Below the pieces are notes generated by a model. That model was not told where the DNA came from and did not search any database. It saw only the letters and a program-made list of their open reading frames with translations. A program made the position numbers and the translations under genes. Positions 38,260 through 54,269 of a DNA stretch of 64,000 nt are shown here, piece by piece. Position 1 is the stretch's first letter, and the number at the start of each line of letters is the position of its first letter. The stretch comes from a virus: the IMG/VR virus record IMGVR_UViG_3300032284_001716, positions 35,512 through 99,511 of that record, one strand, 5' to 3'.

Positions 38260-39070
38260 ACTGATTGATACAAATAAAATTGTATCTGCTAATGTGAATG
38301 ACATTAAGATTGATCCGGACTTTAGAGATCAACATAGTCTTTCTACTTTTGATATGAATTTAATTAAGTCGGCAGTCCATGTCAATATGGGTATGACTGA
38401 CTACCAGTGTAAACACTTTGTAGCAAAAAGCCAAATCACGCCATATAAGCAGGTCCGTCAATCTCTCATGGAGCTTGAGGTGCGTTATCACGCATATCAG
38501 GAGATTCGTAATAGTCTTCGTAAGGCCGAGATTAGTCGTAAGAAGATGCAGCGTCAGATGGATTCACTTGAAGATCCGCTTGATAAAGAGCTCGTACAAA
38601 TTGATTTAGAGAAAAATGACTATGATATTACTATCTGGCAGCGTAAGCTTAATCAGAGTCAGTATGAGATCAGGTCGTTTCTGAATGTTATAAATGAGTA
38701 TGTAAAAAATGAAGACGACCTGGACTTCTACCTTCAAGTTAACGAGGAAGAAGAACGTAAATACTGGGTAGCCCGTATGGGTAAACAGGCAGCAATGGAT
38801 GTTATTGCATTTGGTCGTATTGGTTCAGGCAATATGGATTCAATTGCGATGATGGACGAACGCGATCAACTTGAAACGTTGCAGGTCGCACTACAATATG
38901 CCGGTATGGTCAACGCTGGAATCTCTAAAATTGCTGAGCAAACACAATCACAGGTGAACACCTATTTGAATAGTAAAGAGCATCGTATCGCTCAAATTCT
39001 TGATGGTATTAATAATGACCCAGATCTTCAGCTTACCGATAAATCCAAAGTTAACCCAGAGTCAATTTGA
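38243..39070 (+). CDS. Conserved coiled-coil hypothetical protein
   Basis: MT.YQ...FV..SQITPYKQVRQ.LMEL, EEE..YW..RM.KQAA.D....GRIG.GN.DSI; likely ATG at 38243. Confidence 0.7.
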   Translation: MDIISKLIDTNKIVSANVNDIKIDPDFRDQHSLSTFDMNLIKSAVHVNMGMTDYQCKHFVAKSQITPYKQVRQSLMELEVRYHAYQEIRNSLRKAEISRKKMQRQMDSLEDPLDKELVQIDLEKNDYDITIWQRKLNQSQYEIRSFLNVINEYVKNEDDLDFYLQVNEEEERKYWVARMGKQAAMDVIAFGRIGSGNMDSIAMMDERDQLETLQVALQYAGMVNAGISKIAEQTQSQVNTYLNSKEHRIAQILDGINNDPDLQLTDKSKVNPESI

Positions 39071-40679
39071 GTATTTTGCTGGGTTTATTAGTCACCATAA
39101 GCATCTGATTTATGACCTCTACTTTACTTGTAGAATAGCGCCATTTGATCAAGATGCTATGGGTGATGTTTTTATCGAAAATCCATCTATTACTACAGAA
39201 ACGGCTCTTTGGTTTAAGAATACGTTTGGTGTAAAGATTAGTGCTACATTCAACAACATTCAGGTTCCACCAACTCAGCAAAATCTTGATCTTTGGATTA
39301 AGAATTTTACTCCACTATGGGAAGCCGGTGTTGATACAGTCACACTTCCACATACACACTGGGTAGCAACTGGTCAGATTCAAAAAGCTTTCCCGGGCAT
39401 ATTCATTAAGAATACTATACTTAGAGATGTGAACAGTGCTAGTGAGGTTGTTAACCTTGCTAAAGCTGGATTCGACTATATTAATATAGATCGAGACTTG
39501 ATGCGTGACCGTGACGCACTGCTTCGACTTAAACAGGCAAAAGAATGGGTAAAGAAAAACTTAGGAAAAACACTAGTTTTTAGCCTTCTTGCAAATGAAG
39601 GTTGCCTAGGTAAGTGCCCAATGATGGTTGAACACTTTGAGTATAACAATACTCGTGTTTTTGGACAACCACAATACTTCACAGATACTATCAGCAGAGT
39701 TAGTTGTCCAAAATGGGACTATGAAGATCCATCTGTTCAACTGAAAACTGCAAGCTTTCCACCTTGGAAAGCTGATTGGGAAGAGTTCTTTGACTTAGGC
39801 ATTGATGTATTCAAAATGCATGGTAGGGAGAGTACGAACAGAATGTTCGAATCACTCAATATTATACACAAATGGAATACAGATCAAGAAATACTATTCG
39901 ACGACTTTAAGCAGTATATTGAAGATAAGAATCTAGTTGATAAACCTATTAATATCTGGCGCAATAAGATTAAAAATTGTAAGTTTGATTGCTGGGAGTG
40001 TCAGTACTGTGATAAGATTTATGCTAAGAAAGCCCCGGCACAAGAAAGCACTCTTGTTCAATCCATAGTAACCGCGGTTACTGAAAGTGGTTCTAACGAG
40101 TTAGTATTAGATATACCCGGTTTAACTAGTCCACGCGTGCAAGCTTTACTCAATAAGTTTGCTAAACACAGTAAAAACTATCTTGAAGTTGGTTCATATT
40201 TAGGTGCCACTGCATGTGCAGTACTATCAAATAATAGTATTAATATAGCTTGTGTAGATATGTGGAAAGAACAAATTCAACCGGCTAGAGATGATATAAC
40301 TTTGCCACCTAATAATAAAGAAGCTTTTGTTTCTAATATAAAGAAGTATAAAGGTGATAATACAGTCAAAGTATATGACTGCGATATGTTTAGTGTAAAT
40401 CTGGATCAGTTATCCAACATAGATTTCTTTTTCTATGATGGCCCTCACGATGCTAAATCAACAGTTAGGGCAGTGGAATATTTTTATCCTGTGTTTGCAA
40501 AGGAAACAATATTAGTATTTGATGACGCAAATTGGGATGACGTTGTCAAGGGAGCGGATGAAGGCATTGCCCGAACTAATCTCAAGATCAAATATAGTAA
40601 AATTTTACTTAATCTACCAGAAAATAAAGATGAATGGTGGAATGGTCTTTACATCCTAGTAGTTGAAAAAGGAAACTAA
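39015..40679 (+). CDS. Peptidase U32-family (Fe-S hydroxylase-like) domain fused to a class I SAM methyltransferase (Methyltransf_24-like)
   Basis: GFDYINIDRDL.RD, LLANEGCLGKCP...H, GIDVFKMHGRE, CKFDCWECQYC; then YLEVGSYLGAT, FFYDGPHD, LVFDD..W, WWNG. Confidence 0.8.
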   Translation: MTQIFSLPINPKLTQSQFEYFAGFISHHKHLIYDLYFTCRIAPFDQDAMGDVFIENPSITTETALWFKNTFGVKISATFNNIQVPPTQQNLDLWIKNFTPLWEAGVDTVTLPHTHWVATGQIQKAFPGIFIKNTILRDVNSASEVVNLAKAGFDYINIDRDLMRDRDALLRLKQAKEWVKKNLGKTLVFSLLANEGCLGKCPMMVEHFEYNNTRVFGQPQYFTDTISRVSCPKWDYEDPSVQLKTASFPPWKADWEEFFDLGIDVFKMHGRESTNRMFESLNIIHKWNTDQEILFDDFKQYIEDKNLVDKPINIWRNKIKNCKFDCWECQYCDKIYAKKAPAQESTLVQSIVTAVTESGSNELVLDIPGLTSPRVQALLNKFAKHSKNYLEVGSYLGATACAVLSNNSINIACVDMWKEQIQPARDDITLPPNNKEAFVSNIKKYKGDNTVKVYDCDMFSVNLDQLSNIDFFFYDGPHDAKSTVRAVEYFYPVFAKETILVFDDANWDDVVKGADEGIARTNLKIKYSKILLNLPENKDEWWNGLYILVVEKGN

Positions 40680-41718: not shown

Positions 41719-41775
41719 TATAAATAGAGTGGGGAGTCAATCTCCCCACTAGCCAATAGGGGAGAGTGAACCGTG
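41719..41775 (+). promoter_or_regulatory. Late promoter TATAAATA (41719-41726) followed by a 9 bp hairpin and RBS with alternative pairing
   Basis: AGTGGGGAG-tcaat-CTCCCCACT at 41728-41750; GGGGAGA at 41759-41765 before the GTG at 41773. Confidence 0.75.
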
Positions 41776-42249
41776 GCAGATTCAAGTTTTGTAGTCAAAA
41801 ATACGCTGGTCGTGAATGGGGCCTTTTCTGCCAATTCAACAGCGGTCGCCTTCGGTAATACGACCATCTCTCCGAATGGTTATATCTCTTCAGCCTCTGG
41901 TTCAGCACTGACGTTTACTGGTGCAGTTCTTTTGCAGGCTAATGTGGTCAATCAGACCCTAACTGATGCAGCTACTATCAATTGGGATACGTCAGCTGGC
42001 CAAATTGCATATGTGACGCTTGGTGGAAATAGAACTATGGCTACACCAACCAATCTAAAGGTTGGAACATATATTCTACACGTGCTTCAAGATGGAGTAG
42101 GTGGACGCACACTATCATGGAGTTCAGTCTTTAAGTGGACCGCAGCGGTTTCTCCAGTTTTATCGACTGTTGCTGGCAGACGAGACATTTTTACTTTTAT
42201 GAGCGATGGTACAAATTTGTACGGGTCATATCTTCCAGACGTAAGGTAA
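41773..42249 (+). CDS. Short fibre/adaptor consisting mostly of the shared C-terminal tip domain
   Basis: F.VKN.L.V N-terminal motif, then third copy of QTLTD.ATI.WD.S.GQIA.VTL.GNR...QDG.G.RTL.W...FKW...D.FTF..DGTNLYGS. Confidence 0.8.
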   Translation: MADSSFVVKNTLVVNGAFSANSTAVAFGNTTISPNGYISSASGSALTFTGAVLLQANVVNQTLTDAATINWDTSAGQIAYVTLGGNRTMATPTNLKVGTYILHVLQDGVGGRTLSWSSVFKWTAAVSPVLSTVAGRRDIFTFMSDGTNLYGSYLPDVR

Positions 42250-42253
42250 AAAG

Positions 42254-43834
42254 ATGTTTGTAGCTTTTCTCCCACGACCAACACAAGTTGTTAATATTAA
42301 CTCCGGTACGAACAATGTCAATCTGTTCACGCAAGCTAATAGCCCAACATATCCATTGAATCTACTCTGCTTTATCAATGCAGCGGTAGGTTCTTCTTCT
42401 AACTCATCTCCTGCTTTCAGAACAGGCACAGGTTGGATTCCAGGTTCATACCTGTATATTCAGAATGCTAACACTGTTACTGGTGGTACCGGCCCAACAG
42501 GAAGCACTGGCTCACCTGGAAGTGTTGGCTCGCCGGGAACAACCGGTTCGCCAGGTCCGGCCGGAACACCCGGTTCGACAGGAACAACAGGAACAACAGG
42601 CGCGGCTGGTTCTCCAGGCAGTGCGGGTGCTCCAGGCCCTCAGGGTGCGCATGGCGCGGGTGGTGCTGGTGGTAACGGTGGTGCGAACTATCTTGCAGGT
42701 TCTGGTGGATCATCAGGAGCGGGTGGCTCTACTGGATCGCCCGGCGGAACCGGCGGTAACGGAAATAACGGTTCCCCAGGTGGTACAGGTGGAACAGGCG
42801 GCAACGGAAGTAATGGTACTGCCGGCGGTACAGGTGGAACCGGTGGTAACGGAACAGCCGGCGGCCCTGGTGGCGCAGGTGGTTCAGGCGGCATTGCGTT
42901 CCAAGCTGACACAGTTTCGGGACTTATCACTGTCTTAAATAACACAACTACAATTAGCGGTGGTACTGCCGGCCCAGGTGGACCCGGCGGTCCAGGTGGA
43001 GCGGGCGGCCCCGGCGGACCTGGTGGCCCTGGAGGCGCAGGCGGTGGTGCAGGCCCGGGCGGACCTGGTGGTCCTGGAGGCGCAGGTGGCGATGGCGGCG
43101 GTGGCGGTCCGGGTGGTGCAGGCGGTTACGGCGGCGGTGGCGGCGGTGGTGGCGGTGGATCTGGTGTCTACGGCCCCGGTGTTCGCTTCAATCCTTATAG
43201 TGCTATCATTTATATCACCGGTGCATCGGGCGGCGGCGGAGGCGCAAGCTATAGCTCACCTGGAGCCGGTGGTTCTGGTGGTTGGACTTATTCACCTGCG
43301 TTCTATTCACCCGCAGGTAAGGCTGATCCGCCAATCTACAATCCAGCATTTAACGTATATGCTTACAACGGTGGTGCAGCTTCTGGTGGATCCGCTGGTG
43401 GCGGTGGTGGAGGCTGGTATGGTGGTGGTGCAGGTGGTAACGGCGGTGGTATTCAATCGGCAGGTGCCGGTGGTAATCCAGGCTCTGCATCAGCATATGC
43501 TAACTATACACCGGGTGGAAAGGCGGATCCGCCAATCTTCACCGGTTATTACTACTATAACTATTGGAATGGTGGCGGTGGCGGCCCTGGTGGTGGACAA
43601 GGCGCAACAGGACCGACCGGTCCAGCGGGCAGCGCGGGTTCACCCGGCGGAACCGGTCCAACGGGGTCAGCGGGTAGTGCTGGATCGCCGGGTAGTACCG
43701 GGCCGACTGGTTCTGCAGGATCACCTGGAGGCACTGGACCAGCTGGAACACCGGGCTCGCAAGGACCTGCTATTTCAGGCAACTCAAATATTATCTACGT
43801 AAACACAGGTACAAGAAACGGACCGATAGGATAA
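42254..43834 (+). CDS. gp38-like glycine-rich adhesin with long (Gly-X-Y)n polyglycine-II segments
   Basis: N-terminal NVNL...VGS.S...PAF.TG..W..GS.L.I.N...G, GG.A....I...N...I.GG and C-terminal G.AI.GNSNI....G.R.G follow the T-even gp38 layout. Confidence 0.75.
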   Translation: MFVAFLPRPTQVVNINSGTNNVNLFTQANSPTYPLNLLCFINAAVGSSSNSSPAFRTGTGWIPGSYLYIQNANTVTGGTGPTGSTGSPGSVGSPGTTGSPGPAGTPGSTGTTGTTGAAGSPGSAGAPGPQGAHGAGGAGGNGGANYLAGSGGSSGAGGSTGSPGGTGGNGNNGSPGGTGGTGGNGSNGTAGGTGGTGGNGTAGGPGGAGGSGGIAFQADTVSGLITVLNNTTTISGGTAGPGGPGGPGGAGGPGGPGGPGGAGGGAGPGGPGGPGGAGGDGGGGGPGGAGGYGGGGGGGGGGSGVYGPGVRFNPYSAIIYITGASGGGGGASYSSPGAGGSGGWTYSPAFYSPAGKADPPIYNPAFNVYAYNGGAASGGSAGGGGGGWYGGGAGGNGGGIQSAGAGGNPGSASAYANYTPGGKADPPIFTGYYYYNYWNGGGGGPGGGQGATGPTGPAGSAGSPGGTGPTGSAGSAGSPGSTGPTGSAGSPGGTGPAGTPGSQGPAISGNSNIIYVNTGTRNGPIG

Positions 43835-43838
43835 AAAC

Positions 43839-44306
43839 ATGGACATTCACTACAAAATCATTGAAGTCAATCCAAATGAACATGCGATCGTCGTTAGATA
43901 CTTTACTGATTTCTTGTCAGAGGAAGATCTAGCAACAAATCCGGAGGATCCTAACAGACTTCCGGATGGATCGCCTGTCAGATGCCGTACAGACTATAAC
44001 ATTAACGTTCCAGTGCCAGCACCAACCGGTGCGCAGCTTGAGGAATTTATTATCTCAAACGCACCAGTTCACTGGCTTGAAATTGTTCGTCAGGTTAGAG
44101 ATCCGGATATTGACACCTCGTTATCAGAGCTTCAAAACATGATTGGTGTACATAACACCAGATCAGTTGAAGTTGCACCATCTCAGCCAACATATCTTGC
44201 ACCATTTACTCCTCCTGCAGAACCTAAGGAAGAGATTGCTGGTGTCATGACTGATGATGATATTAAGGAACTTCTAGCAAAGGCAGCGGCCGGTAAAGCT
44301 GGTTAA
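43839..44306 (+). CDS. Hypothetical protein, possible adhesin chaperone/assembly factor
   Basis: Immediately downstream of the adhesin; YKIIEV.....IVVRY, YNI..P.PAP....L..FI...AP. Confidence 0.55.
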   Translation: MDIHYKIIEVNPNEHAIVVRYFTDFLSEEDLATNPEDPNRLPDGSPVRCRTDYNINVPVPAPTGAQLEEFIISNAPVHWLEIVRQVRDPDIDTSLSELQNMIGVHNTRSVEVAPSQPTYLAPFTPPAEPKEEIAGVMTDDDIKELLAKAAAGKAG

Positions 44307-44308
44307 TT

Positions 44309-45391
44309 ATGACTCTGAGTAGAAAACTCAATGAGAATATCTTTTATTATGATGGTGCTAGGAATCTCTATAACAATAGGCACGATCTTCTAGCATCAGA
44401 GTTTTCCACTCTGAAACGCTTTTACTATTATGATAAAGAGTTCTCACAGGTAAACTGGACTAAAGAGCCAGTAGAAGATCTATGGACTCTTTATTCCAGG
44501 AGAGCCCAACAAATTAGAGATGACTTCGACTATGTCATCTTATGTTATTCAGGCGGTGTTGACTCTACCACTATCCTAGAAGCTTTCTACTATAACAACA
44601 TCTATATTGATGAGATTCTACTAGTGGGTGCTTTCTCACGGGATAAGTTTCAGGGTGATGACACCAACCATAATGCAGATTTGTACTATAATGTGCACCC
44701 TACTTTGAGGTCAATGAATCTTCCAAACACGAAGATTACAGTTAAAGACTATACAGAGTACTTCAATGATCCAAATAACTTCTCACTAATCAAAGAATAT
44801 GGCGATGACTTTGCGCTCATGCTAGGTGCGTACACTAGTGTGCATAACCTATTCTGGTATGACTTAAAGAAGTTTATCGGCGCGGATAAGACCAAGAATA
44901 CCTGCTATATTATGGGATCTGATAAACCAAAGCTATCATATGAGGCACACACAAATCGTTTCTACACTGATATGAACGATGCATCTGTGGCCGACTATGG
45001 CGCTGCGTTTGTAGATGAGAACTTCACTCGAGTTAACTTCTATACAGAGCCTAAAGCCGAAGCTATCATGAGGAAGCAGCTGCACACGCTTCTAAAGTTC
45101 TATATTCAGAATATCAATATCGATAAGACTATGACACATGATAACTTTCAGCAGCACTACATAAGCATAGTCAATGGGCTGATGTACAACCTTCGAAATC
45201 CGCTAAAGTATAAGTCTAAAAAATCAGTAATATCGTGCCTAAGTGTCAGAGATATGTTTATGTTGGAGTCACAGGACTCTGATATGTTCAAGATATATAA
45301 ACAAGCAACACTTAAATTGGACAAACGAGTTGCGTACCTCAGAAGAGGCATCCAAACTCAGAAATATTACGTAACAGAAAGTGCGGAATGA
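44309..45391 (+). CDS. PP-loop (N-type ATP pyrophosphatase, HUP fold) enzyme, paralog 1
   Basis: RAQQIRDDFDYVILCYSGGVDSTTILEAF..NNI.IDEI. Confidence 0.8.
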   Translation: MTLSRKLNENIFYYDGARNLYNNRHDLLASEFSTLKRFYYYDKEFSQVNWTKEPVEDLWTLYSRRAQQIRDDFDYVILCYSGGVDSTTILEAFYYNNIYIDEILLVGAFSRDKFQGDDTNHNADLYYNVHPTLRSMNLPNTKITVKDYTEYFNDPNNFSLIKEYGDDFALMLGAYTSVHNLFWYDLKKFIGADKTKNTCYIMGSDKPKLSYEAHTNRFYTDMNDASVADYGAAFVDENFTRVNFYTEPKAEAIMRKQLHTLLKFYIQNINIDKTMTHDNFQQHYISIVNGLMYNLRNPLKYKSKKSVISCLSVRDMFMLESQDSDMFKIYKQATLKLDKRVAYLRRGIQTQKYYVTESAE

Positions 45392-45855
45392 CGCATCTTT
45401 TCTATTTCCTTTTATGGACACTTGTGATATATTGTATGCATAGGATCGTGCACATAGTTCCTTATATGAGCAAGATCCATGGCGATCATCACAAGCAGGT
45501 GTCCCAGGCAACGATCCGTGGTCTACACTGGACGAACCTATTCCTATACTTTGATAGCTGGAAGAGTACTGCAGACCAATGGATAACTGAGGTCATTCCA
45601 ACTTTTATTCTATGCTTAGTGTCTGGACAATGGTGGTTGATGGTATTCTACTATATTTGGGCAGCATTCATTCAAGAGTCTATTGAGCATAACGAGAAGT
45701 TTAATCTATATCCATTTATCACCAGTGGTAAATGGCACTTGATTCATCATAGAGAACCCGATAAGAATTATGGAGTATTCTTTCCCATCTGGGATATGAT
45801 ATTTGGCACGTGGAAGGGAATCGATGGCAACGCACAAGAATTGGCTAAGAAGTAA
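45388..45855 (+). CDS. Fatty acid hydroxylase/sterol desaturase family membrane enzyme
   Basis: His boxes HRIVH, HGDHH, EHN, HLIHH and NYG.FFPIWD.IFGT. Confidence 0.88.
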   Translation: MTHLFYFLLWTLVIYCMHRIVHIVPYMSKIHGDHHKQVSQATIRGLHWTNLFLYFDSWKSTADQWITEVIPTFILCLVSGQWWLMVFYYIWAAFIQESIEHNEKFNLYPFITSGKWHLIHHREPDKNYGVFFPIWDMIFGTWKGIDGNAQELAKK

Positions 45856-46645
45856 TATCACTGATCGTAAGGATGTAGGTTTAGATCTTGATGTTACAGT
45901 AACAAAGATCGATGAGTGGAACCTTAATACACCATGGGATAAAGCTTCAGAAAATGTAGTAAAACTTATTGCTGACCTTGATAAACCAATATTCATTGGA
46001 TTAAGTGGTGGTTTAGATTCTGATTATGTCTGTACCGTATTCGAAGAAGCCGGTGTTAAGTATACACCGATAATTATCGATACACCTGGAAATCAAGATG
46101 AATTGAAGTATGCATACCAGTTTTGTAAAATCTGGGGTATAGATCCACTAGTGATCAAGAAGACTGAAGCAGAGATGCTAGGTACATACTATGATAAGAT
46201 CTTGAATGCTTGCAGTGGATATGGTCATAACTCTGTTGCCATGTATATGATCGGTGAATACACCAAGAAGATGGGTGGTGTCTATGTTATGGCTGAACAT
46301 CTAATAGATGAAAAGCCACGCGGTGGTTTTAATGTGGGTTGCAACGAGTGGGATTTCTATAACGATCTACTTCTCGGTGAGGACAATACCGTATACTTCT
46401 TCAACTATACACCAGAGATTAGCGCTGCAATGATCAGAGAATTTCCTGATTATGATGATGTGCAAAAGTCTAAAGCAGAGTTTTACGGTCTTGAATATAG
46501 GCTTAAGATGAAGTATCGTTATAGTGATTCGTACAATAAAACGTTCGGCCAATTAAGACGAACAAAGTGGTTGACACACAATCCTAACTATACGTTTGGA
46601 ACAAGAGAAGAATATCTAAATTTGCTACAATCGATGGGTGAATAA
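45824..46645 (+). CDS. PP-loop enzyme, divergent paralog 2
   Basis: IFIGLSGGLDSDYV...F...G; likely ATG at 45824. Confidence 0.75.
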   Translation: MATHKNWLRSNITDRKDVGLDLDVTVTKIDEWNLNTPWDKASENVVKLIADLDKPIFIGLSGGLDSDYVCTVFEEAGVKYTPIIIDTPGNQDELKYAYQFCKIWGIDPLVIKKTEAEMLGTYYDKILNACSGYGHNSVAMYMIGEYTKKMGGVYVMAEHLIDEKPRGGFNVGCNEWDFYNDLLLGEDNTVYFFNYTPEISAAMIREFPDYDDVQKSKAEFYGLEYRLKMKYRYSDSYNKTFGQLRRTKWLTHNPNYTFGTREEYLNLLQSMGE

Positions 46646-47545
46646 ATGGAAGAACCTAAAGTAGAAATTGGGTCTCAACAGACTCTACTTGAAACTAAAA
46701 AGAATCTTCAGTCTTTAAGAGCTTACACCACTGAACGTGGTTGGGGAAGTGATCTTTATAGTGACTTTGAACGAGCTTATGGCAAGTATCTACTGGTTCC
46801 ATTTGATATTCCAAAGATTTTACCAAATGATCCAAACAAGTTTGTAGAGTTTTTCTTTACAAAGGGTGCAAATGCAGTAAAGATTAAGACAGATATGTTA
46901 AGTAAAGCAGGATCTGGTCAGGGTGGTAAGTCGCCGTATGTACAGATTACTAGTGTATCTGAAAAGCATTCAGACGTTTGGTCGGATAATCCAGTTCCTG
47001 AAATTTATACTGAGTTTCCAGAGATCTTCGAGCAGATTCATGAGTATATGCCATTCATCACCAGAAAGAATTTCAAATGGTTTATGTGGTCCAGCAACTG
47101 GGATGTACCACCACACCGTGATTATGGATCACAGTTAGATTGTCCAGCTGGTATTCGTATCATGTTGTTTGACAATAACCCTGAACCTACCTTGAGTATG
47201 TCAGTAGATCCGATCGATAAAGAGTACAGCCGCAAATATCCTATTATTCTACCTGATGATACCAACAGTTTTGCCTGGAATAATCTTCGTCAGAAGCACG
47301 AAAGTAGGTATATCAAGGGTCACCGCAAGATTCTCTTTATAGTTTCAGCCAAAGAGATCGGATTTATCACTAGTACGACATATGGTAAACGTACCTTAAA
47401 TCAATATGTCGATCTTCTTGATCGAAGTGTGGCCAAATATAAAGATCATGTGGTAGTGGATACCGACAATGACTATACAGACTATCTAGATTTCAATGGC
47501 ACCGAGCCTATAAATATAGTTATGGGTAACAAGGAGATTCTCTAA
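46646..47545 (+). CDS. Cupin/2OG-Fe(II) oxygenase-like protein
   Basis: VPPHRD...IRIML...TNSFAWNN...HES...RKIL; HxD...H facial triad pattern. Confidence 0.55.
   Translation: MEEPKVEIGSQQTLLETKKNLQSLRAYTTERGWGSDLYSDFERAYGKYLLVPFDIPKILPNDPNKFVEFFFTKGANAVKIKTDMLSKAGSGQGGKSPYVQITSVSEKHSDVWSDNPVPEIYTEFPEIFEQIHEYMPFITRKNFKWFMWSSNWDVPPHRDYGSQLDCPAGIRIMLFDNNPEPTLSMSVDPIDKEYSRKYPIILPDDTNSFAWNNLRQKHESRYIKGHRKILFIVSAKEIGFITSTTYGKRTLNQYVDLLDRSVAKYKDHVVVDTDNDYTDYLDFNGTEPINIVMGNKEIL
47509..47516 (+). promoter_or_regulatory. T4-type late promoter TATAAATA
   Basis: Exact consensus about 30 bp upstream of ORF 47545 (AAGGAG RBS), heading the PP-loop/TctC pairs. Confidence 0.75.
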
Positions 47546-47919
47546 TGACCATTAAACTATATCAAGACCTTATCAAGACTGATGAACAGACTTGGAATGA
47601 AAGATCACCACAGGGTGAAACAGATCAGTATTTTGTTGATTGGAAGACGAACGTTGTCGAAAAGCAGCCTGGATATATTAGCATGACGACTAGAGAAGAT
47701 CTAGATGCTAATACCAGAAGAATTACCTGGGAAATCGATACTATCGATCACGCAAAGCCGTTCTATCAGGCTACACATGATCCAAGTAATCCTATCTATA
47801 AGGCTTATATCGATAATGTAATGAGCATGCCTACATATCAGCACCATAAGTTTAGACTTAGCCTTGATCGTAATGATGGTTCGAACAACGCTGTAACTGT
47901 TATGGTTGAACCAAAGTAA
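47545..47919 (+). CDS. Hypothetical protein, possibly dimeric alpha/beta barrel
   Basis: Strong RBS; QPGYIS....D......ITWE.DT is weakly ABM-like. Confidence 0.55.
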   Translation: MTIKLYQDLIKTDEQTWNERSPQGETDQYFVDWKTNVVEKQPGYISMTTREDLDANTRRITWEIDTIDHAKPFYQATHDPSNPIYKAYIDNVMSMPTYQHHKFRLSLDRNDGSNNAVTVMVEPK

Positions 47920-47928
47920 AATTTCAAA

Positions 47929-49224
47929 ATGCCCCTTGTTGTTACCGGTGAAGTAGGTATATATTGGAACAAATTCGGGGAGCGTTATGCTGACACCGTA
48001 AATAAGCAGCTGCAGAAAGATACCAGTCTTCTGCAGCTTCATTGTGGTTACTACCTTTACAATGATAAAATCTACATAGATCGAAAAGATCTACTAGATG
48101 AAATGTTAGTAACACGTGATAATAATTCAGTTCAATTTATGTTCAATGAAGATGTCTTTCAAAAGATAGACTGGACAGTAGAACCAGATATTAGCCTAGA
48201 TGAGCTCTACAGGCAAAGAGCACAGCAAATCAGAGATTCTTACGACTATATCATCTTGAGTTACTCGGGTGGTGCAGACTCGCATGAAGTATTAAGTGTA
48301 TTTCTTAAGAACAATATCTTCATCGATGAAATTCAAGTAGTACATCATTACGATCTGATAAAGAAGATCGGTCGTACTACTATGGAGACAGACCCGGGTT
48401 TAGCTATGATGCTTGAGTTCGAGCGTGTTGCATTACCTACTATTAAAAAGTTAGTAGAGAAGTCACCAGGTACTAAGATTAATCTGATGGATGCATCTGA
48501 CTTTGTTGTACAAGATGTACATGGTCATAGATTCTCATTTATGGGAATGGATAAGTTCAACAATAATGCCGGCTTCATGTGTATGACTACACCATTTGTC
48601 CGCAATTTCTTTCAGCATCATCAGAATAATAAGAACCTAAATTTGGGTGGCAAGAAGGTCTGTTTCCTCCGTGGAACAGAAAAGCCAAGTCTCAAGATGT
48701 ATAGAAATAATCTGAAGTTTAACTTTACCGACGCATCGATGCATGGAACCAAGCTGATGCAGAAGGGGGATATAGATGAGATATATACTATTGAGAACTT
48801 CTTCTGGAGCCCGGATGCTCCTCTGATTCCAATCAAACAATCACATGTCATTAAGAAAGTACTCGAGCGAGATCCAAAATTCTATGCTCAGTTCATGATT
48901 AATCAAGAAAAGAATATTCGAATGACTGAGTTTAATAAACCAGGCATTGCAGAAGAGCAAGACTTCCAAAGAAAGTATACTAGAATAATCTATAGTCATT
49001 GGAACGATACTTTCTTTAAGGCTCCAAAGAAAGCTCCAGTATCTGGAGAGTTCCAAGCTGTTAAGATATTGTTCAATGACACATACTATCGAGATGCTAT
49101 AAAAGAACAGAATAACTTCTTCTTTAAGAAGTATGATTTAATCGAAGATAAGTCCTTACTTAATAAGACGCTTGCTTCATATCGTTATGATCTAGGAGAG
49201 ATGAATGTACAATGGAATGATTAG
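47929..49224 (+). CDS. PP-loop enzyme, paralog 3
   Basis: DWTVEP..L.ELY.QRAQQIRDSYDYIILSYSGGADS, G.EKP, E.FFWSPD.P.I.IKQ.H. Confidence 0.82.
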   Translation: MPLVVTGEVGIYWNKFGERYADTVNKQLQKDTSLLQLHCGYYLYNDKIYIDRKDLLDEMLVTRDNNSVQFMFNEDVFQKIDWTVEPDISLDELYRQRAQQIRDSYDYIILSYSGGADSHEVLSVFLKNNIFIDEIQVVHHYDLIKKIGRTTMETDPGLAMMLEFERVALPTIKKLVEKSPGTKINLMDASDFVVQDVHGHRFSFMGMDKFNNNAGFMCMTTPFVRNFFQHHQNNKNLNLGGKKVCFLRGTEKPSLKMYRNNLKFNFTDASMHGTKLMQKGDIDEIYTIENFFWSPDAPLIPIKQSHVIKKVLERDPKFYAQFMINQEKNIRMTEFNKPGIAEEQDFQRKYTRIIYSHWNDTFFKAPKKAPVSGEFQAVKILFNDTYYRDAIKEQNNFFFKKYDLIEDKSLLNKTLASYRYDLGEMNVQWND

Positions 49225-50113
49225 AAATGCTGCTATTGGTTTGATGATGATTGGTTCTGCATCGGCCGCAGAACAAGTAGAAATCATCTCAAGTATTCCT
49301 GCGGCTGGTTCTGGTGGACAGATTGGTGCCGGTATTACACAAATCCTGAATAAAGTACAGACTGACCGTGAGTATAAGTTCGTCGTGAGCCCGGGCGCAC
49401 AGGGCGATACATCAGCTCTCAAAGCTCTAGTTGATGCAAAGACTCAGAATGTAGTGATGTTTAATGGTATCTCAGTGACTACCACTAACAGACTTCTGAA
49501 TCCTAATGCAGGGTTTGATCGCGATAAGGACTTCATTCAGAGTATTGGTATTGGTAAGAACTACTATGCCATTATGGTGAATCCAGACTCGCCTATTAAG
49601 AATGTTGATGACCTAGTGAAGTCTATCAAGAGCAAGCCGAAGGCTTTCTTCTCGACTACATTGACGGCGCCGGGTTCTGTTATCATCAATGACATCTTCC
49701 TGAAGAGATACGGTATCACCAATAAGGTTGAATCGATTAACTATAAGTCGCCACAGGAGATTATCCTAGCTCTGAACAACAAAGAGTCAGATTATACTAT
49801 CTTTACGGTGTCTGATATGACTAATCTGAAGGCTATCATGGTATCGTCAGAGAAGCGCCTGATTCAGTTCCCTGATGCGCCAACAGCTAGGGAAACCGGG
49901 TTCGATGCGTTCTCGCTATCATCTATTCTTATGTTCTCTATTCCTAAAGATCGTGCCGCGTTTCAAAGAACATTTGAAGAGGACATGAAAAAAGTGTGTG
50001 CACACCCAGACTATGAGCGTATTGCCAATATTCGTGCTCCATATCGTTCAGAATGCATGACTCCAGCTGATACTATGGCTACTGTCGAAAACGAATTGAA
50101 GACTATCAGATAG
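49217..50113 (+). CDS. Tripartite tricarboxylate transporter substrate-binding protein (TctC/Bug), divergent
   Basis: Signal peptide (ASA-AE), FVVSPGAQG, V.PDSPIK.V.DLV, YKS, KRL..FPD.PT..E.G. Confidence 0.8.
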   Translation: MIRNAAIGLMMIGSASAAEQVEIISSIPAAGSGGQIGAGITQILNKVQTDREYKFVVSPGAQGDTSALKALVDAKTQNVVMFNGISVTTTNRLLNPNAGFDRDKDFIQSIGIGKNYYAIMVNPDSPIKNVDDLVKSIKSKPKAFFSTTLTAPGSVIINDIFLKRYGITNKVESINYKSPQEIILALNNKESDYTIFTVSDMTNLKAIMVSSEKRLIQFPDAPTARETGFDAFSLSSILMFSIPKDRAAFQRTFEEDMKKVCAHPDYERIANIRAPYRSECMTPADTMATVENELKTIR

Positions 50114-51318
50114 TGTATACTACAAGCAATGGTTACTATCTTTATAACGACAAGTGCTTCTTCACACGCGAGGAAGTACTTGACGAGATGTTGCTTAATA
50201 AAGACTATGATGGATCCTTTGAATTCAAATTCAACGATGAGGTTTATTCAGAACTCAACTGGCAGGTAAACACGTATCCTCCATTGAGACAGCTGTATAA
50301 AATAAGAGCACAGCAGCTTAGGGACAAGTATGATTACTTGATATTATCATATTCTGGTGGAAGTGATTCTACAGAAGTATTAGAGACGTTTTTAAGAAAT
50401 AACATATTCATCGACGAGGTTCAGGTTCTGAACTTTGAATCCCTATTTTCAAAGGCTAGATTATCTTCTGACCTACATTATTTTCTTGAGTATAGACTAT
50501 CAGCTGTCAGCGGCTTGAAAAGAATTAAAGAGTTTAGCCCTAATACTAAGATCACAATTATCGATGCATCGAACTTCCTGTTCGATCAGGTAGTCAACAA
50601 TAAATTTGAGATGTTAGGTATCGATAAAGAGAAACCTTCAGTTACATTATTAACAGGCTCTAGTGCTCGCTCGACTAACTACTATATGCAAAGGTATAAT
50701 GAGAAAAATACCAATAAACAGAACTCATGTTTCATCAGAGGTTCAGAGAAGCCGTCCTTAAGTATTGAAGACAGTAAACTTTACCATTCATTCTACGATA
50801 TATCGATGAATGGATACTCATACAGAACTGATCCCTATCAAACAGAACTGTTCTTTTGGTCTAAAGATATGCCAATGATTGTACTAGCACAGATTCAAGT
50901 ATTGAAGACGGCACTAGAGAATAATAAGACTTTCTACAATCTCTTTTTGCATATGCAGGTATTATCAAAGCAGCATATCATTCAGAAGTTAAAAGGATAC
51001 TCTCCGGCTGTCAACCTTGAAAGAATGTATTCATACTTCATATACGATCATTGGGGAAAGAATAGCTTTAACTCAGAAAAGATTATCTATAAGTCACCTG
51101 AGTTTGAGCTTATTAAATCTATAGCAGGGCGGCACAGCGGATATGAAGTAATGACTGAAAAAAACAACTTTTATAAAAATAAATACAGCCTGATCAACAA
51201 TCAATACCTACTAAGCAAATTCAAATTTGGACAAAGATATTATGTCGGGGAGTTACAGTTAAATCATGATAAGGATCTTAATAAGTCTTCTGTTATTATG
51301 CTCAACGGCAAATGCTAA
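50113..51318 (+). CDS. PP-loop enzyme, paralog 4
   Basis: RAQQLRDKYDYLILSYSGGSDS, G.EKP, ELFFWS; closest to ORF 47929. Confidence 0.82.
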   Translation: MYTTSNGYYLYNDKCFFTREEVLDEMLLNKDYDGSFEFKFNDEVYSELNWQVNTYPPLRQLYKIRAQQLRDKYDYLILSYSGGSDSTEVLETFLRNNIFIDEVQVLNFESLFSKARLSSDLHYFLEYRLSAVSGLKRIKEFSPNTKITIIDASNFLFDQVVNNKFEMLGIDKEKPSVTLLTGSSARSTNYYMQRYNEKNTNKQNSCFIRGSEKPSLSIEDSKLYHSFYDISMNGYSYRTDPYQTELFFWSKDMPMIVLAQIQVLKTALENNKTFYNLFLHMQVLSKQHIIQKLKGYSPAVNLERMYSYFIYDHWGKNSFNSEKIIYKSPEFELIKSIAGRHSGYEVMTEKNNFYKNKYSLINNQYLLSKFKFGQRYYVGELQLNHDKDLNKSSVIMLNGKC

Positions 51319-52012
51319 AGATATTGATATTATTACTAGGTTTGGAAATTCATCTGTTGCTACAAGAAATCTGATTGAATATGTTTATGTGTTGAATGGT
51401 ATTCAATCAGATTATACATTCAAAGTCGTGTCTGCACCGGGGGCTAGAGGTGAGGTTGCAGATCTTAAAGCTAAGATGATAGCTGAAACCAATGATGTTT
51501 TAATATTCAACTCTACTTCATCATATACAAATAAATCTAGTGAAGGTATCATCCCTCTTTATAGTATATGGGGATCGCCGCAATCTATTATGGTTGCGCA
51601 AGATTCGCCTATCCAAACTATAGATAACTTCATTAAATTTGCTAAAGCAAAACCAAACCTTTACTATGCTACAGAGGATAATGCCTCTGGATCGGCTATA
51701 TTAAACAATCAATTGATAAAGGAATTTGGTCTTAAGAATGTAGTTAATCTAAGCTATAAAAGCATAGGTGATGCAAAGAAAAGCATACTGATTGGCGAAG
51801 CGGATTATACCATCTTTAATGTTAATGAGATGATAGGTCTAAAATCTATCAAGTATTTTGACTATATGACAGAGTCAATGATGTCTGTGCCGGCCACCAG
51901 ATTGGAATTTGGTAGCCGGCTTAAACCGATATTCATGGCAGCGTGTAACGATAAAGCTTATATAGAAAAGCTTGTTAAAACTGGTTACACGTCTGTATGC
52001 AAAGAAAAATAA
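51266..52012 (+). CDS. TctC/Bug-like binding protein, shortened
   Basis: Signal peptide (ANA-K), FKVVSAPGA.G, V..DSPI.TI..FI, YKS; paralog of 49217. Confidence 0.7.
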   Translation: MIRILISLLLLCSTANAKDIDIITRFGNSSVATRNLIEYVYVLNGIQSDYTFKVVSAPGARGEVADLKAKMIAETNDVLIFNSTSSYTNKSSEGIIPLYSIWGSPQSIMVAQDSPIQTIDNFIKFAKAKPNLYYATEDNASGSAILNNQLIKEFGLKNVVNLSYKSIGDAKKSILIGEADYTIFNVNEMIGLKSIKYFDYMTESMMSVPATRLEFGSRLKPIFMAACNDKAYIEKLVKTGYTSVCKEK

Positions 52013-52627
52013 TTAGGTAAACTTAGGACCGACAACCCAGATTACGATCGATCGACGCGTACCCTTTGTTATCGGCTTCACGCGATGAATCATAAATGAG
52101 GGGAAGAGAATGCATCTTCCTTTCTTAGCATCAACGGTAATAGGTTCATTCTCCATACCGTTATTGATCTGAAACTCGCCACCCTCAAAATCGTCGTTCA
52201 GTAAGAACGTCAGTGATAACTTACGTGTGTCATGCATATTCTGTGGCATGTGACCCATGCCCATATCCATATGCCAATCATACTTTCCCTCTTCATCAGA
52301 GTTGTAGACTGTATATTGGAAAGCATCGTATCCGTTCAACTCAAATCCATAGTACATCTCATTGATGCTCTGGATGACAAAGTTAAATTTATCAAAGATC
52401 CATGCAGTCTCTGGTGTACGTGCGTGGAACTTTACATTCGACTTACGGACTCTCTCGGTTTCCTCTTGAGTGCCGGAGAATGTGGTACCACGTTCAGTTC
52501 CCTGTTCTTCACAGTAATTAAGTACTGCCTGAATCTCTTCCTCAGTAAAGAGGTCGTCCCAGAATGACCATGGGTGCGTGATACGTGAACGATTATACGG
52601 ATCGTTATAGATTGTTGTGTACTTCAT
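52013..52627 (-). CDS. 2OG-Fe(II) oxygenase (PKHD/prolyl-4-hydroxylase type)
   Basis: YDWHMD, RKLS....LN..FEGGEF, FPSF..HRV.P.TKG.R.S.V.W..G. Confidence 0.92.
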   Translation of the reverse strand: MKYTTIYNDPYNRSRITHPWSFWDDLFTEEEIQAVLNYCEEQGTERGTTFSGTQEETERVRKSNVKFHARTPETAWIFDKFNFVIQSINEMYYGFELNGYDAFQYTVYNSDEEGKYDWHMDMGMGHMPQNMHDTRKLSLTFLLNDDFEGGEFQINNGMENEPITVDAKKGRCILFPSFMIHRVKPITKGTRRSIVIWVVGPKFT

Positions 52628-53313
52628 TTACGGAAAATTCTCCAATTAGACGATGGCTGAATGCCTGTAGGTTTTGCTTCCACTTTTCTATAGGTAAAGA
52701 ATACGTCACCTGCAAGACAAACTCTCTTCTGTTTAAGATCATCTAAACTCTTGCAGCCTTCATCAAACTCAGAATTACCATAACCAACAGTGTGATGACT
52801 CAACCTTGCAGGGAATACGAAAAGATTTCCCTCAGTCGGGGCAAAGCCTGTGTCATATGCGTTAAACTTGTTAACCTCGGTAGAGTTAAACCTGATCATC
52901 CCATAGTATGGGTCATTCATGTGTGGAGGTGTTGACGAGAAGACAATAGGTTTCTCAAGTTGATCCGGAATGTTAGCATAGTATGTGAATGAAAGATGAG
53001 CATCTTCATGGCTATGGAAAGGTGTGTGTCTTTCCTTGGTGATGTTCATCCAAGTCTTAACAATGTTAATATCAAAGATTTCAGGATCGATAGCAAGAGT
53101 ACGAAGATACTCTTCAATAGAGCCAGTAATATATCCAAACAACGGCGCAAAGGCTTCCTCATGGTGGATATTGACGTGACCAGTATACTCATTCGAGTAA
53201 CCGTCAACAGTCATATACTTCATGAGTTTGCTTAGGAAGATCGGCTTGAACTTATCAGCATCCCTATACTGATCTTCAAGAACTAGTGTTGGAAAGAGTG
53301 CATGTCTAATCAT
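52624..53313 (-). CDS. Putative 2OG-Fe(II) oxygenase (TIGR02466-like)
   Basis: LFPT, WMN......H.H...LS..YY, P.EG.L.VFP..L.H, R...A. Confidence 0.82.
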   Translation of the reverse strand: MIRHALFPTLVLEDQYRDADKFKPIFLSKLMKYMTVDGYSNEYTGHVNIHHEEAFAPLFGYITGSIEEYLRTLAIDPEIFDINIVKTWMNITKERHTPFHSHEDAHLSFTYYANIPDQLEKPIVFSSTPPHMNDPYYGMIRFNSTEVNKFNAYDTGFAPTEGNLFVFPARLSHHTVGYGNSEFDEGCKSLDDLKQKRVCLAGDVFFTYRKVEAKPTGIQPSSNWRIFRK

Positions 53314-54269
53314 CTATTGGCCTCATTTAACCTTTTCAGTTTTTCAACAAAAGCGTCGTCTACACGAATCACATACTTAACTATATTGAGGGCTTCATCG
53401 TGGTAGATCGGATTGACCTCTATGTTCATCTTTCTTGCTTCCTCTAGATACTCAGAGTCCATTACGGCTTTCGTAAAAGCTTCACGCAGTTCCTGAGCAT
53501 TCTTTTCAGGAATTCCTGGAGGGGCGACAAATGGCCTTAACATAGCATAGCTTGCCTCCACAATAGATAGTATTGTTTTGTCTGTATCTAATTGTACCAT
53601 CTCAGCGAGAGTCTGTACATCTTTATATTCTATGTGTCTATGAATACCGTTACCAAACTGCATGCATGCATTGATACCTGAATCTGGCTTAAGCCAGTTA
53701 GGCTTCTGCGTCTTGATACCAACTAGATTATAAACTACAGCATCAACCTCTTTTCTCTCGAGAGCCATTCTGGCATCTCCGGGAGTTGCATAACCTGTAA
53801 CGATCTTAGCATCTAACTTAGCTATATCACGAACTAGGAAAGCCGGATTCACACCTGCATAGTTCTCTGATCCGATGATCTTTGGATTATCCGTGTTGCA
53901 CCACATGATAACTGCATCCTTACGCCCGTCGACGTTTGAACCAATCCATGTGAATTTAGTAGCATCAAATTGTACGTTAGGGACGTGTAGTGTACCGACT
54001 AATGGAATTTCCTTGTAGAAGGTGCCGATGACCGACCCATCCTTAGGTGCAATATTGTATAGGTAGTTGGCTGCAACCAGGCTGGCTGCCCCAGGCATGG
54101 ACTGAATAACTAGTGTCGGTTTGTTAGGAAGATATTTGACCAGATACTTACCAAGCACTCTGGCATTGATATTGTAGCTATCGTTGTCTGATGGGACGAT
54201 AATCTTTAGGGTTTCTGCCGCAGCCGGCGTGACCATTAGGGTCAAAGCGAGGATAATCGCTCGAAACAT
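53310..54269 (-). CDS. TctC/Bug family substrate-binding protein
   Basis: Signal peptide; Y...AR.L.KY...YLP..P......MPGA.SL.AANYLY..APKDG..IG, LA.ER.EVD, RPF.APPG.P....LR.AF. Confidence 0.88.
   Translation of the reverse strand: MFRAIILALTLMVTPAAAETLKIIVPSDNDSYNINARVLGKYLVKYLPNKPTLVIQSMPGAASLVAANYLYNIAPKDGSVIGTFYKEIPLVGTLHVPNVQFDATKFTWIGSNVDGRKDAVIMWCNTDNPKIIGSENYAGVNPAFLVRDIAKLDAKIVTGYATPGDARMALERKEVDAVVYNLVGIKTQKPNWLKPDSGINACMQFGNGIHRHIEYKDVQTLAEMVQLDTDKTILSIVEASYAMLRPFVAPPGIPEKNAQELREAFTKAVMDSEYLEEARKMNIEVNPIYHDEALNIVKYVIRVDDAFVEKLKRLNEANR

Follow-up and report, generated by a model that had tools for sequence, protein, structure and literature searches.

Lysine-tipped hairpins as putative receptor contacts in an expanded gp38-type adhesin of an uncultured phage

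The DNA analysed here, called the window throughout, is a stretch of 64,000 nucleotides (positions 35,512 to 99,511) from the IMG/VR virus record IMGVR_UViG_3300032284_001716, a 99.5-kb contig with an estimated completeness of 58%. It carries a glycine-rich adhesin gene in which the peptide GKADPPI is encoded twice. We favor, at a probability of roughly 0.45, the reading that each GKADPPI segment forms the turn of one of two equivalent hairpins that face the receptor in an expanded gp38-type adhesin, with the lysine as a conserved contact. The adhesin gene and the loops of its head are as follows.

42254 to 43834, plus strand: gp38-like adhesin gene of 526 amino acids, 36% of them glycine, from its open reading frame and composition
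43157 to 43228, plus strand: loop 0, residues 302-325, the first aromatic loop after the G10 run, with no lysine and R311 instead
43283 to 43369, plus strand: loop 1, residues 344-372, an aromatic-rich hairpin module with K356
43481 to 43564, plus strand: loop 2, residues 410-437, an aromatic-rich hairpin module with K423

GKADPPI is encoded at 43316-43336 and again at 43517-43537, exactly as an earlier sequence-only reading of this DNA had reported, and these copies lie within the wider motifs YSPAGKADPPIY (43304-43339) and YTPGGKADPPIF (43505-43540). The two synonymous sites at which they were said to differ (ggt/gga and gct/gcg) were confirmed. The composition of the protein also agrees with the earlier claim that these segments hold its only lysines, as charged residues are scarce (two Lys, K356 and K423; four Asp, at 219, 280, 358 and 425; four Arg, one His and no Glu) and the two segments contain both lysines and two of the four aspartates. 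Their location in aromatic-rich loops of the head was likewise read correctly, each core being flanked by Tyr/Trp/Phe-rich strands and placed between polyglycine runs. When the adhesin sequence was shuffled, both lysines fell in an identical context from -1 to +5 in only 4 of 200,000 shuffles. The 67-residue modules, each consisting of a Gly-rich run and a loop, align with 19 identities in 37 positions (composition-adjusted BLASTP E 3e-7). Strands predicted at low confidence at residues 413-419 and 428-435 of loop 2 would place the core at the turn. Loop 0, with strands predicted at low confidence at 306-310 and 319-324, aligns to the single PSKGVP loop of the short family members.

The adhesin is laid out as an N-terminal attachment and beta-helix base, two Gly-rich excursions, and a conserved C-terminal strand ending in GTRNGP; besides 190 Gly, it has 55 Ala, 52 Pro, 51 Ser and 47 Thr residues. 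Uninterrupted Gly-X-Y runs of collagen-like character span residues ~77-130 and 449-503. A profile of the family, searched against PDB sequences, matched collagen chains (E 6e-16 to 1e-6) and no gp38 chain, and in principle the Gly-X-Y runs could trimerise. The gp38 adhesin itself binds the trimeric fibre tip as a monomer. The GC content of the gene is 58.5%, compared to 41.6% for the window. Long open reading frames overlap the gene in other frames (42465-42938 and 42960-43802 on the plus strand; 42477-42945 and 43539-43782 on the minus strand) and, because the adhesin coding sequence is rich in GGN codons, they are read as by-products and not as genes.

Sequence searches with the adhesin itself returned little. 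No Pfam family was matched at E 0.01 or better (the Pfam GP38 profile included), no NCBIfam family, and no informative PHROG. The head (residues 300-445) gave no match in a word-indexed protein search, in which glycine words flooded the candidates, and none in an exhaustive HMMER search of 1.84 billion representatives, probably because of composition filtering; these failed searches are no proof that the adhesin stands alone. A tblastn search of 50,697 cultured phage records found no match to the whole adhesin, to its head, or to two proteins encoded downstream (PP360 and a 155-residue protein, both described below), and the exact back-translated pattern GKADPPI[YF] had no further match in viral contigs. 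The sole hint of the adhesin family among cultured phages came from the first 80 residues (42254-42493), which weakly matched hypothetical proteins of seven Rhizobium phages (tblastn E 0.04-0.05, 41-45% identity over 64 residues).

Structure models were more informative. In the AlphaFold2 (AF2) model of the window adhesin only the base is confident (residues 10-100, 190-260 and 480-526), and the head (residues 267-475) has a predicted local distance difference test score (pLDDT) below 50. When the base was compared to 48,161 PDB representatives with VIA-align, the gp38 adhesins of phages PP01 (Z 13.3 over 148 residues) and S16 (Z 12.9 over 153 residues) ranked first and second, and the next structure scored 8.1. 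A 293-residue relative (L014:6385-7263), modeled from a 24-sequence alignment, gave a mean pLDDT of 87.5 and a predicted template modeling score of 0.74. With this model the same pair of gp38 structures was matched at E 8e-10 and 1.2e-5 in Foldseek (probability 1.00), and it ranked first and second in VIA-align, well above all else, at Z 14.1 and 13.5. Foldseek with the low-confidence window model found nothing significant, with gp38 ranked first at E 0.37; the fold was settled by VIA-align and the model of the relative. In that model, the loop ...NPASKGVPAYY... is predicted to form strands at 163-167 and 176-180, with its lysine in the turn, between two polyglycine runs.

In gp38, an attachment domain is joined by a beta-helix, to which both the N- and the C-terminus contribute, and by a polyglycine-II sandwich; the loops between the Gly-rich motifs of this sandwich recognise the host and bind the receptor (PMC12032242). 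The AF2 models reproduce this three-part architecture. The alternation of Gly-rich motifs and loops is found as well, since polyglycine runs are invariant in 16-24 aligned relatives and have aromatic loops between them, and the gene of a fibre-tip protein lies directly before the adhesin gene. These models indicate that the window adhesin has the gp38 fold. The earlier assignment as a gp38-type adhesin is therefore supported at the level of fold, without membership of the Pfam GP38 sequence family, and the placement of a lysine at a hairpin tip is seen in the confident model of the relative, the window head being modeled poorly.

Compared to gp38 of the T2/T6/S16/PP01-type Straboviridae (PDB 6F45 chain D and 9V85), the adhesin family shares the beta-helix base, the polyglycine-II sandwich and the position of the gene directly after that of the distal fibre tip. 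The short family members (293-304 residues) are near in size to the solved gp38 chains (248 and 222 residues). Identity to gp38 in structural alignments is 18-22%. The window adhesin differs in being twice as long, with Gly-X-Y runs bracketing each Gly-rich excursion and with a duplicated hairpin module. Unlike gp38, it is nearly devoid of charged residues, and its family has a conserved lysine turn at the loop tips where gp38 has hypervariable ones. The conserved small protein and enzyme block encoded downstream are also missing from Straboviridae. A further likeness, drawn from a published description, is to haloarchaeal tailed viruses, in which a Gly-rich gp38-type host-range adhesin is followed by a small gene; their hosts are archaea, and no enzyme block or lysine-turn motif is reported for them (PMC8651126).

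Relatives of the adhesin were recovered from viral and metagenome contigs with the C-terminal strand pattern N-I-x-[YW]-[IV]-x-x-G-T-R-N-G-P, and on the enzyme side with an alignment of the PP-loop proteins. A locus search driven by alignment had picked polyglycine patterns and led to unrelated Gly-rich loci (L006-L010), and the hand-made strand pattern was used instead. Some 25 distinguishable adhesin lineages of a virus-only family resulted, and most carry a lysine turn with the consensus P-x-x-K-[GA]-x-x-P between two polyglycine runs. The turn takes the forms PSKGVP, PTKGVP, ASKGVP, DGKGV, NGKGT, TPPKQPP, GGKADAP, NAKADPD, GPKADPP and PAPKGCSP, and [AG]GKADPP in the window. The lysine motif is kept in relatives at 45-75% identity, and the residues right after the core vary among close relatives in which the core is unchanged. 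The residue two positions after the lysine (K+2) is Asp in the KAD variants only, and Cys, Val, Ser, Thr or Pro in other lineages. The expectation that gp38 loops are hypervariable applies to the flanks of these loops but not to the turn, which is kept in most lineages. As judged from these alignments, the lysine loop is conserved rather than hypervariable, and the two loops of the window, far from being peculiar to one protein, are a duplicated form of a family-wide motif.

Two-loop proteins were compared among the window and loci L005, L035, L003 and L045 (L043, on another contig, repeats the L035 type). In five of five, both loops have the same core, and the core differs from phage to phage (KADPP, KGCSP or KGVP). 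The loop copies differ at 2-5 synonymous codons, and such differences occur in four different phages, which argues that the identity of the cores is held by purifying selection and not by recent gene conversion. K+2 changes jointly in both loops (D/D, C/C, V/V). In the 481-residue L003 adhesin, the only two cysteines are the K+2 residues of its two loops, the positions at which the window protein has two of its four aspartates. Cores that co-vary in this manner suggest a common partner, which may be a receptor of repeated units or an enzyme, or else a contact from tip to tip. A conserved core that is identical in both loops under purifying selection would fit a recognition element.

Under the favored reading, two hairpins would project from the polyglycine-II sandwich at the positions of the host-recognition loops of T-even gp38. 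The building block of the family would be a polyglycine run, an aromatic strand, the P-x-x-K-[GA]-x-x-P turn, a second aromatic strand and a second polyglycine run. Duplication of the 67-residue block with its Gly-rich run in the clade of the window phage would have enlarged the head and given it two tips of the same kind. The proline-bracketed turn is proposed to expose the only lysine side chains, and by this proposal the only cationic ones, of an almost uncharged protein, where the lysine may serve as the conserved anchor that contacts an anionic group of the host surface. Specificity would come from the variable Tyr, Trp and Phe residues beside the turn, and a pair of identical tips would bind receptor units that are repeated or symmetric. 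No chemical modification would be needed. Adhesin heads without lysine, having His-rich, Tyr/Pro-rich or Cys-rich chemistries instead, are as expected for alternative receptor specificities.

Several observations weigh against the receptor-contact reading. The tips are the most variable part of gp38 and the most conserved part here, which is unusual for a pure specificity determinant. The pLDDT of the window head is below 50, and because that head was modeled poorly, the hairpin geometry is taken from the relative and from low-confidence strands. A conserved block of enzymes in the same operon is given no role, and two independent losses of the lysine turn coincide with absence of this block.

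The enzyme block and the other neighbors of the adhesin gene bear on the alternatives and are listed here.

41773 to 42249, plus strand: small fibre-tip protein, 158 amino acids, matching PHROG tail-fibre families
43839 to 44306, plus strand: 155-residue protein, found after the adhesin in almost every family member, block-less ones included
44309 to 45391, plus strand: PP360, a PP-loop (SGGxDS) protein and first enzyme of the block, from its motif; its atlas clusters are all viral
45388 to 45855, plus strand: membrane di-iron hydroxylase or desaturase of the FA_hydroxylase family (Pfam PF04116, E 6e-17)
45803 to 46645, plus strand: PP280, a second PP-loop protein (Pfam Asn_synthase, E 4e-4, 20.5 bits against a cut-off of 21)
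46646 to 54269, no single strand: remaining island, with genes for a 299-residue protein, a 124-residue protein, PP-loop proteins, TctC-like proteins and 2-oxoglutarate (2OG)-Fe(II) oxygenases
47929 and 50113: further PP-loop proteins
49205, 51266 and, on the minus strand, 53310: TctC-like binding proteins
52013 and 52624, minus strand: 2OG-Fe(II) oxygenases

The order fibre-tip protein, adhesin, 155-residue protein, PP360, hydroxylase and PP280 is shared by the window, L003, L005, L035/L043, L045, L046, L049-L051, L056, L057 and L076. Locus L053 has the same genes in another order, L072 is truncated after PP360, and the L004/L014 group has a looser order in which two 2OG oxygenases are interleaved with two adhesin paralogues. 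PP360 orthologues follow the adhesin at 0.4-1.6 kb (~2.8 kb for one) in the block-carrying loci (L043-L059, L072 and L076). The start of the block falls in this same range in about 14 lineages, with one at ~2.8 kb; block and adhesin share a strand there, and stop and start codons often overlap. A polyglycine protein lies just upstream of nearly all close relatives of PP360, whereas PP-loop relatives at 35% identity or less have no polyglycine protein within 10 kb. Gene order thus ties the enzymes to the adhesin family, and the tie to the lysine is weaker.

The fibre-tip gene adjoins the adhesin gene at the 5’ end of the latter, as it does in nearly all family loci. Its product has a homologue in the C-terminal domain of the long distal fibre protein that relatives encode (1150 residues in L005) and is likely the docking partner of the adhesin. 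The 155-residue protein matched no Pfam, PHROG or NCBIfam family and is a candidate chaperone or accessory protein. A neighboring product with a Methyltransf_24 domain, from the open reading frame at 39000-40679, shares 45% identity with proteins found in T4-like Synechococcus and Prochlorococcus phages, which marks the phage as distantly related to cyanomyoviruses.

The SGGxDS loop is present in the products of the reading frames at 44309, 45803, 47929 and 50113 and in their relatives. The same loop is shared by amide-forming PP-loop enzymes such as the synthetase domain of asparagine synthetase B, beta-lactam synthetase and lasso-peptide cyclase, and among atlas structural neighbors of the island proteins are some clusters with Asn_synthase or QueC on 14% of members. 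The island family differs from those enzymes in being virus-only and in having no glutaminase domain, and a protein lysine is only its putative substrate. PDB sequence searches found no solved relative of the family; for PP280, which weakly resembles asparagine synthase, they gave only NAD synthetase at E 0.49.

An alternative that we consider rather unlikely is that one of the downstream PP-loop enzymes acylates the lysine at each hairpin tip and that the identical core is the recognition sequence of this enzyme. The PP-loop protein would activate a carboxylic acid by adenylation and transfer it to the epsilon-amine of the lysine; the TctC-like proteins may capture this acid and the oxygenases tailor it. 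Acylation of this kind would explain the synteny, the exposed and unique lysine, and the identical cores, which persist despite the synonymous differences between the copies and change together between phages. The two 2OG oxygenases between the L004 adhesin paralogues and the weak likeness of PP280 to asparagine synthase are in keeping with it. Yet two lineages, L056 and L057/L072, have Tyr/Pro-rich head loops with no lysine and still show the block immediately downstream, with small protein, PP360, hydroxylase and PP280 (L072 as far as it could be read, to PP360). Moreover, the membrane nature of the hydroxylase and the signal peptides of the TctC-like proteins suggest lipid, envelope or small-molecule chemistry and not modification of a cytoplasmic fibre protein. 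The suggestion that GKADPPI is an enzyme recognition tag, made in the sequence-only reading, is favored by the conserved, identical cores and by the synteny, and disfavored by the lineages that lack the lysine and keep the block.

To ask whether the lysine goes with the block, 32 loci were scored on a tree of the 155-residue protein. Lysine and block occurred together in 23 loci, lysine only in three (all of them contig fragments), block only in two, and neither in four. Fisher’s exact test gave p 0.012 on these raw counts and p 0.058 when lineages were collapsed. Only 3-4 contrasts were independent, two of them concordant, two unchanged and none discordant; with so few, the sign test was unable to reach significance. 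A lysine-less His-rich class points the same way, with no PP-loop gene on five contigs of 29-69 kb that jointly cover ~38 kb upstream and ~44 kb downstream of the adhesin gene. The co-occurrence of lysine loops and PP-loop genes, put forward as a check in the sequence-only reading, shows as a positive trend in the raw counts and in the two concordant contrasts, short of statistical significance on independent contrasts; any link between lysine turn and block would be weak.

The L042/L026 type was considered as a lysine loop without enzymes and rejected, as a complete genome has, 15 kb upstream, a block-linked paralogous adhesin that shares its PSKGVP loop. The complete 197-kb genome G001 (L177:8777-9697 and L179:8408-9352) has two adhesin paralogues 15 kb apart with the same LVPSKGVPYYNYY loop; the 155-residue protein and a PP-loop gene follow one paralogue only, and two more PP-loop genes lie ~90 kb away.

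A fuller version of the acylation proposal, which we regard as unlikely, is that the adhesin is a decorated one. Dedicated virus-only PP-loop amide ligases would join a tailored organic acid to each tip lysine, with import aided by the TctC-like proteins and oxidation by the hydroxylase and oxygenases. A non-protein group would then make up some of the surface that binds the receptor, and variants without lysine would have switched to other ligands, such as clusters of histidine.

Joint change of K+2 in both loops could also mean that the two tips touch, with K+2 as the contact residue, an arrangement that we think improbable, and one that may coexist with receptor binding; the duplicated motif would then act as a structural clasp of the enlarged head. 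The contacts, an equally improbable proposal, would be Lys-Asp salt bridges or a shared metal site in the window, a disulfide in L003 and hydrophobic packing in L045; the placement of the only two L003 cysteines, and of two of the four window aspartates, at K+2 speaks in favor. However, single-loop members have the motif with no partner loop, the distance between the tips is not readable from the low-confidence two-loop head model, and apposition of two aspartates requires a putative cation.

The sequence-only reading had further proposed a Lys-Asp lactam, or beta-hydroxy-Asp and N-hydroxy-Lys as iron ligands. Lysine and aspartate do lie two residues apart in both loops, oxygenases and enzymes of amide-forming type are encoded near the adhesin, and the His-rich variant (21 His) would fit a metal-binding theme. 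The proposal is nonetheless very improbable, as the same block stands beside KGV, KGC, KGS and KGT forms; with K+2 being D, C, V, S or T by lineage, neither a lactam nor hydroxy-Asp can be the mechanism of the family. The supposed oxygenase, the 299-residue island protein, matched no family and is restricted to the clade of the window and L045, Asp-free L003 and L045 included.

That the repeat is functionless, whether by chance, as a low-complexity artefact or by fresh gene conversion, is hardly credible: composition bias is extreme, and an exact 7-mer repeat with no more than 30% Gly arose in 15 of 2000 shuffles, but the shared lysine context is far rarer among shuffles, the motif is conserved in relatives, and the synonymous differences in four phages speak against recent conversion and favor selection on the peptide.

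A spontaneous isopeptide bond of the pilin or HK97 type was set aside, as the adhesin has no Glu and its Asp is not conserved. No lipoyl, biotinyl or EF-P acceptor domain was found around the lysine by Pfam or NCBIfam match, and the head has a gp38-type fold. Telopeptide and helix lysines of collagen are hydroxylated by lysyl hydroxylases (X-Lys-Gly, X-Lys-Ala/Ser), and giant viruses carry collagen-modifying enzymes. The lysine loops may be likened to such sites: Gly or Ala comes after the Lys, the protein has Gly-X-Y runs, and 2OG-Fe(II) oxygenases are encoded nearby. They differ in that the lysine is in a hairpin turn outside the Gly-X-Y runs. No lysyl-hydroxylase or glycosyltransferase family was matched, and the nearby oxygenases belong to 2OG-FeII_Oxy_3 and Oxy_5.

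The gp38-type adhesins are the best understood monomeric host-range determinants. To our knowledge, their descriptions concern in essence enterobacterial T-even phages, with haloarchaeal viruses added on the basis of sequence features. Literature searches found no description of the adhesin family, the lysine motif or the enzyme block seen here. Our results show that the gp38 fold is used in an expanded form, with a conserved lysine-tipped hairpin, by a large family of uncultured T4-like phages that have cyanomyoviruses as relatives, and that the enzyme block is adjacent in most lineages. Should the lysine serve only to anchor the receptor, the tip chemistries of the family (Lys, His-rich, Cys-rich and Tyr/Pro-rich) would form a clean natural series on one scaffold, which would help to study the evolution of host recognition in abundant environmental phages. 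If the lysine is acylated, a function would be assigned to a widespread enzyme family found only in viruses, and a phage receptor-binding protein that dedicated amide ligases bring to completion would, as far as we know, be without precedent. The question of modification is narrowed to two defined peptides.

Variation in the enzymes and in the heads was seen at other loci. At L004:1061-4727, the adhesin paralogues (487 and 293 residues) are interleaved with 2OG-FeII_Oxy_3 (E 3e-14) and 2OG-FeII_Oxy_5 (E 5e-12) proteins, and the same two oxygenase types occur on the minus strand of the window (52013-53313). An ATP-grasp enzyme (GARS_A, E 1e-18) in the L004-type island (L004:8743-9864) is a second kind of ATP-dependent ligase beside the PP-loop genes. 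The KGCSP-type island contains a radical SAM/SPASM-domain protein (L003:9150-10430, E 7e-12 and 4e-7) that is absent from the window island. Distant PP-loop relatives (34-40% identity) at L063, L065, L066, L069-L071 and L075 are flanked by polyglycine proteins of another family, with a different N-terminus and no GTRNGP end, and the association of enzyme and Gly-rich protein may therefore extend beyond one adhesin family.

The His-rich class is represented by a 391-residue variant (L017:3056-4228; also L031, L033, L040, L022, L141 and L142) with 20-21 histidines in the head loops, in runs like GHGHAGHGGGSHSGHAG, and no lysine; it may have a metal-binding head, and it keeps the 155-residue protein downstream. 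Adhesin-family C-termini at L011:6658-7164 (minus strand), L036:152-598 and L164 are preceded by an alternating cysteine repeat (C-D-C-Q-C-L-C-D-C...), followed at L011 by the 155-residue protein and a PP-loop gene. At L013, L015 and L019 (also L123, L148 and L153), a 32-residue C-terminal remnant of the adhesin, ending in GTRNGPVS, is all that stands right after the fibre-tip homologue, as if the whole Gly-rich body had been deleted or the assembly had collapsed; the L019 contig retains a PP-loop gene ~5 kb from the remnant.

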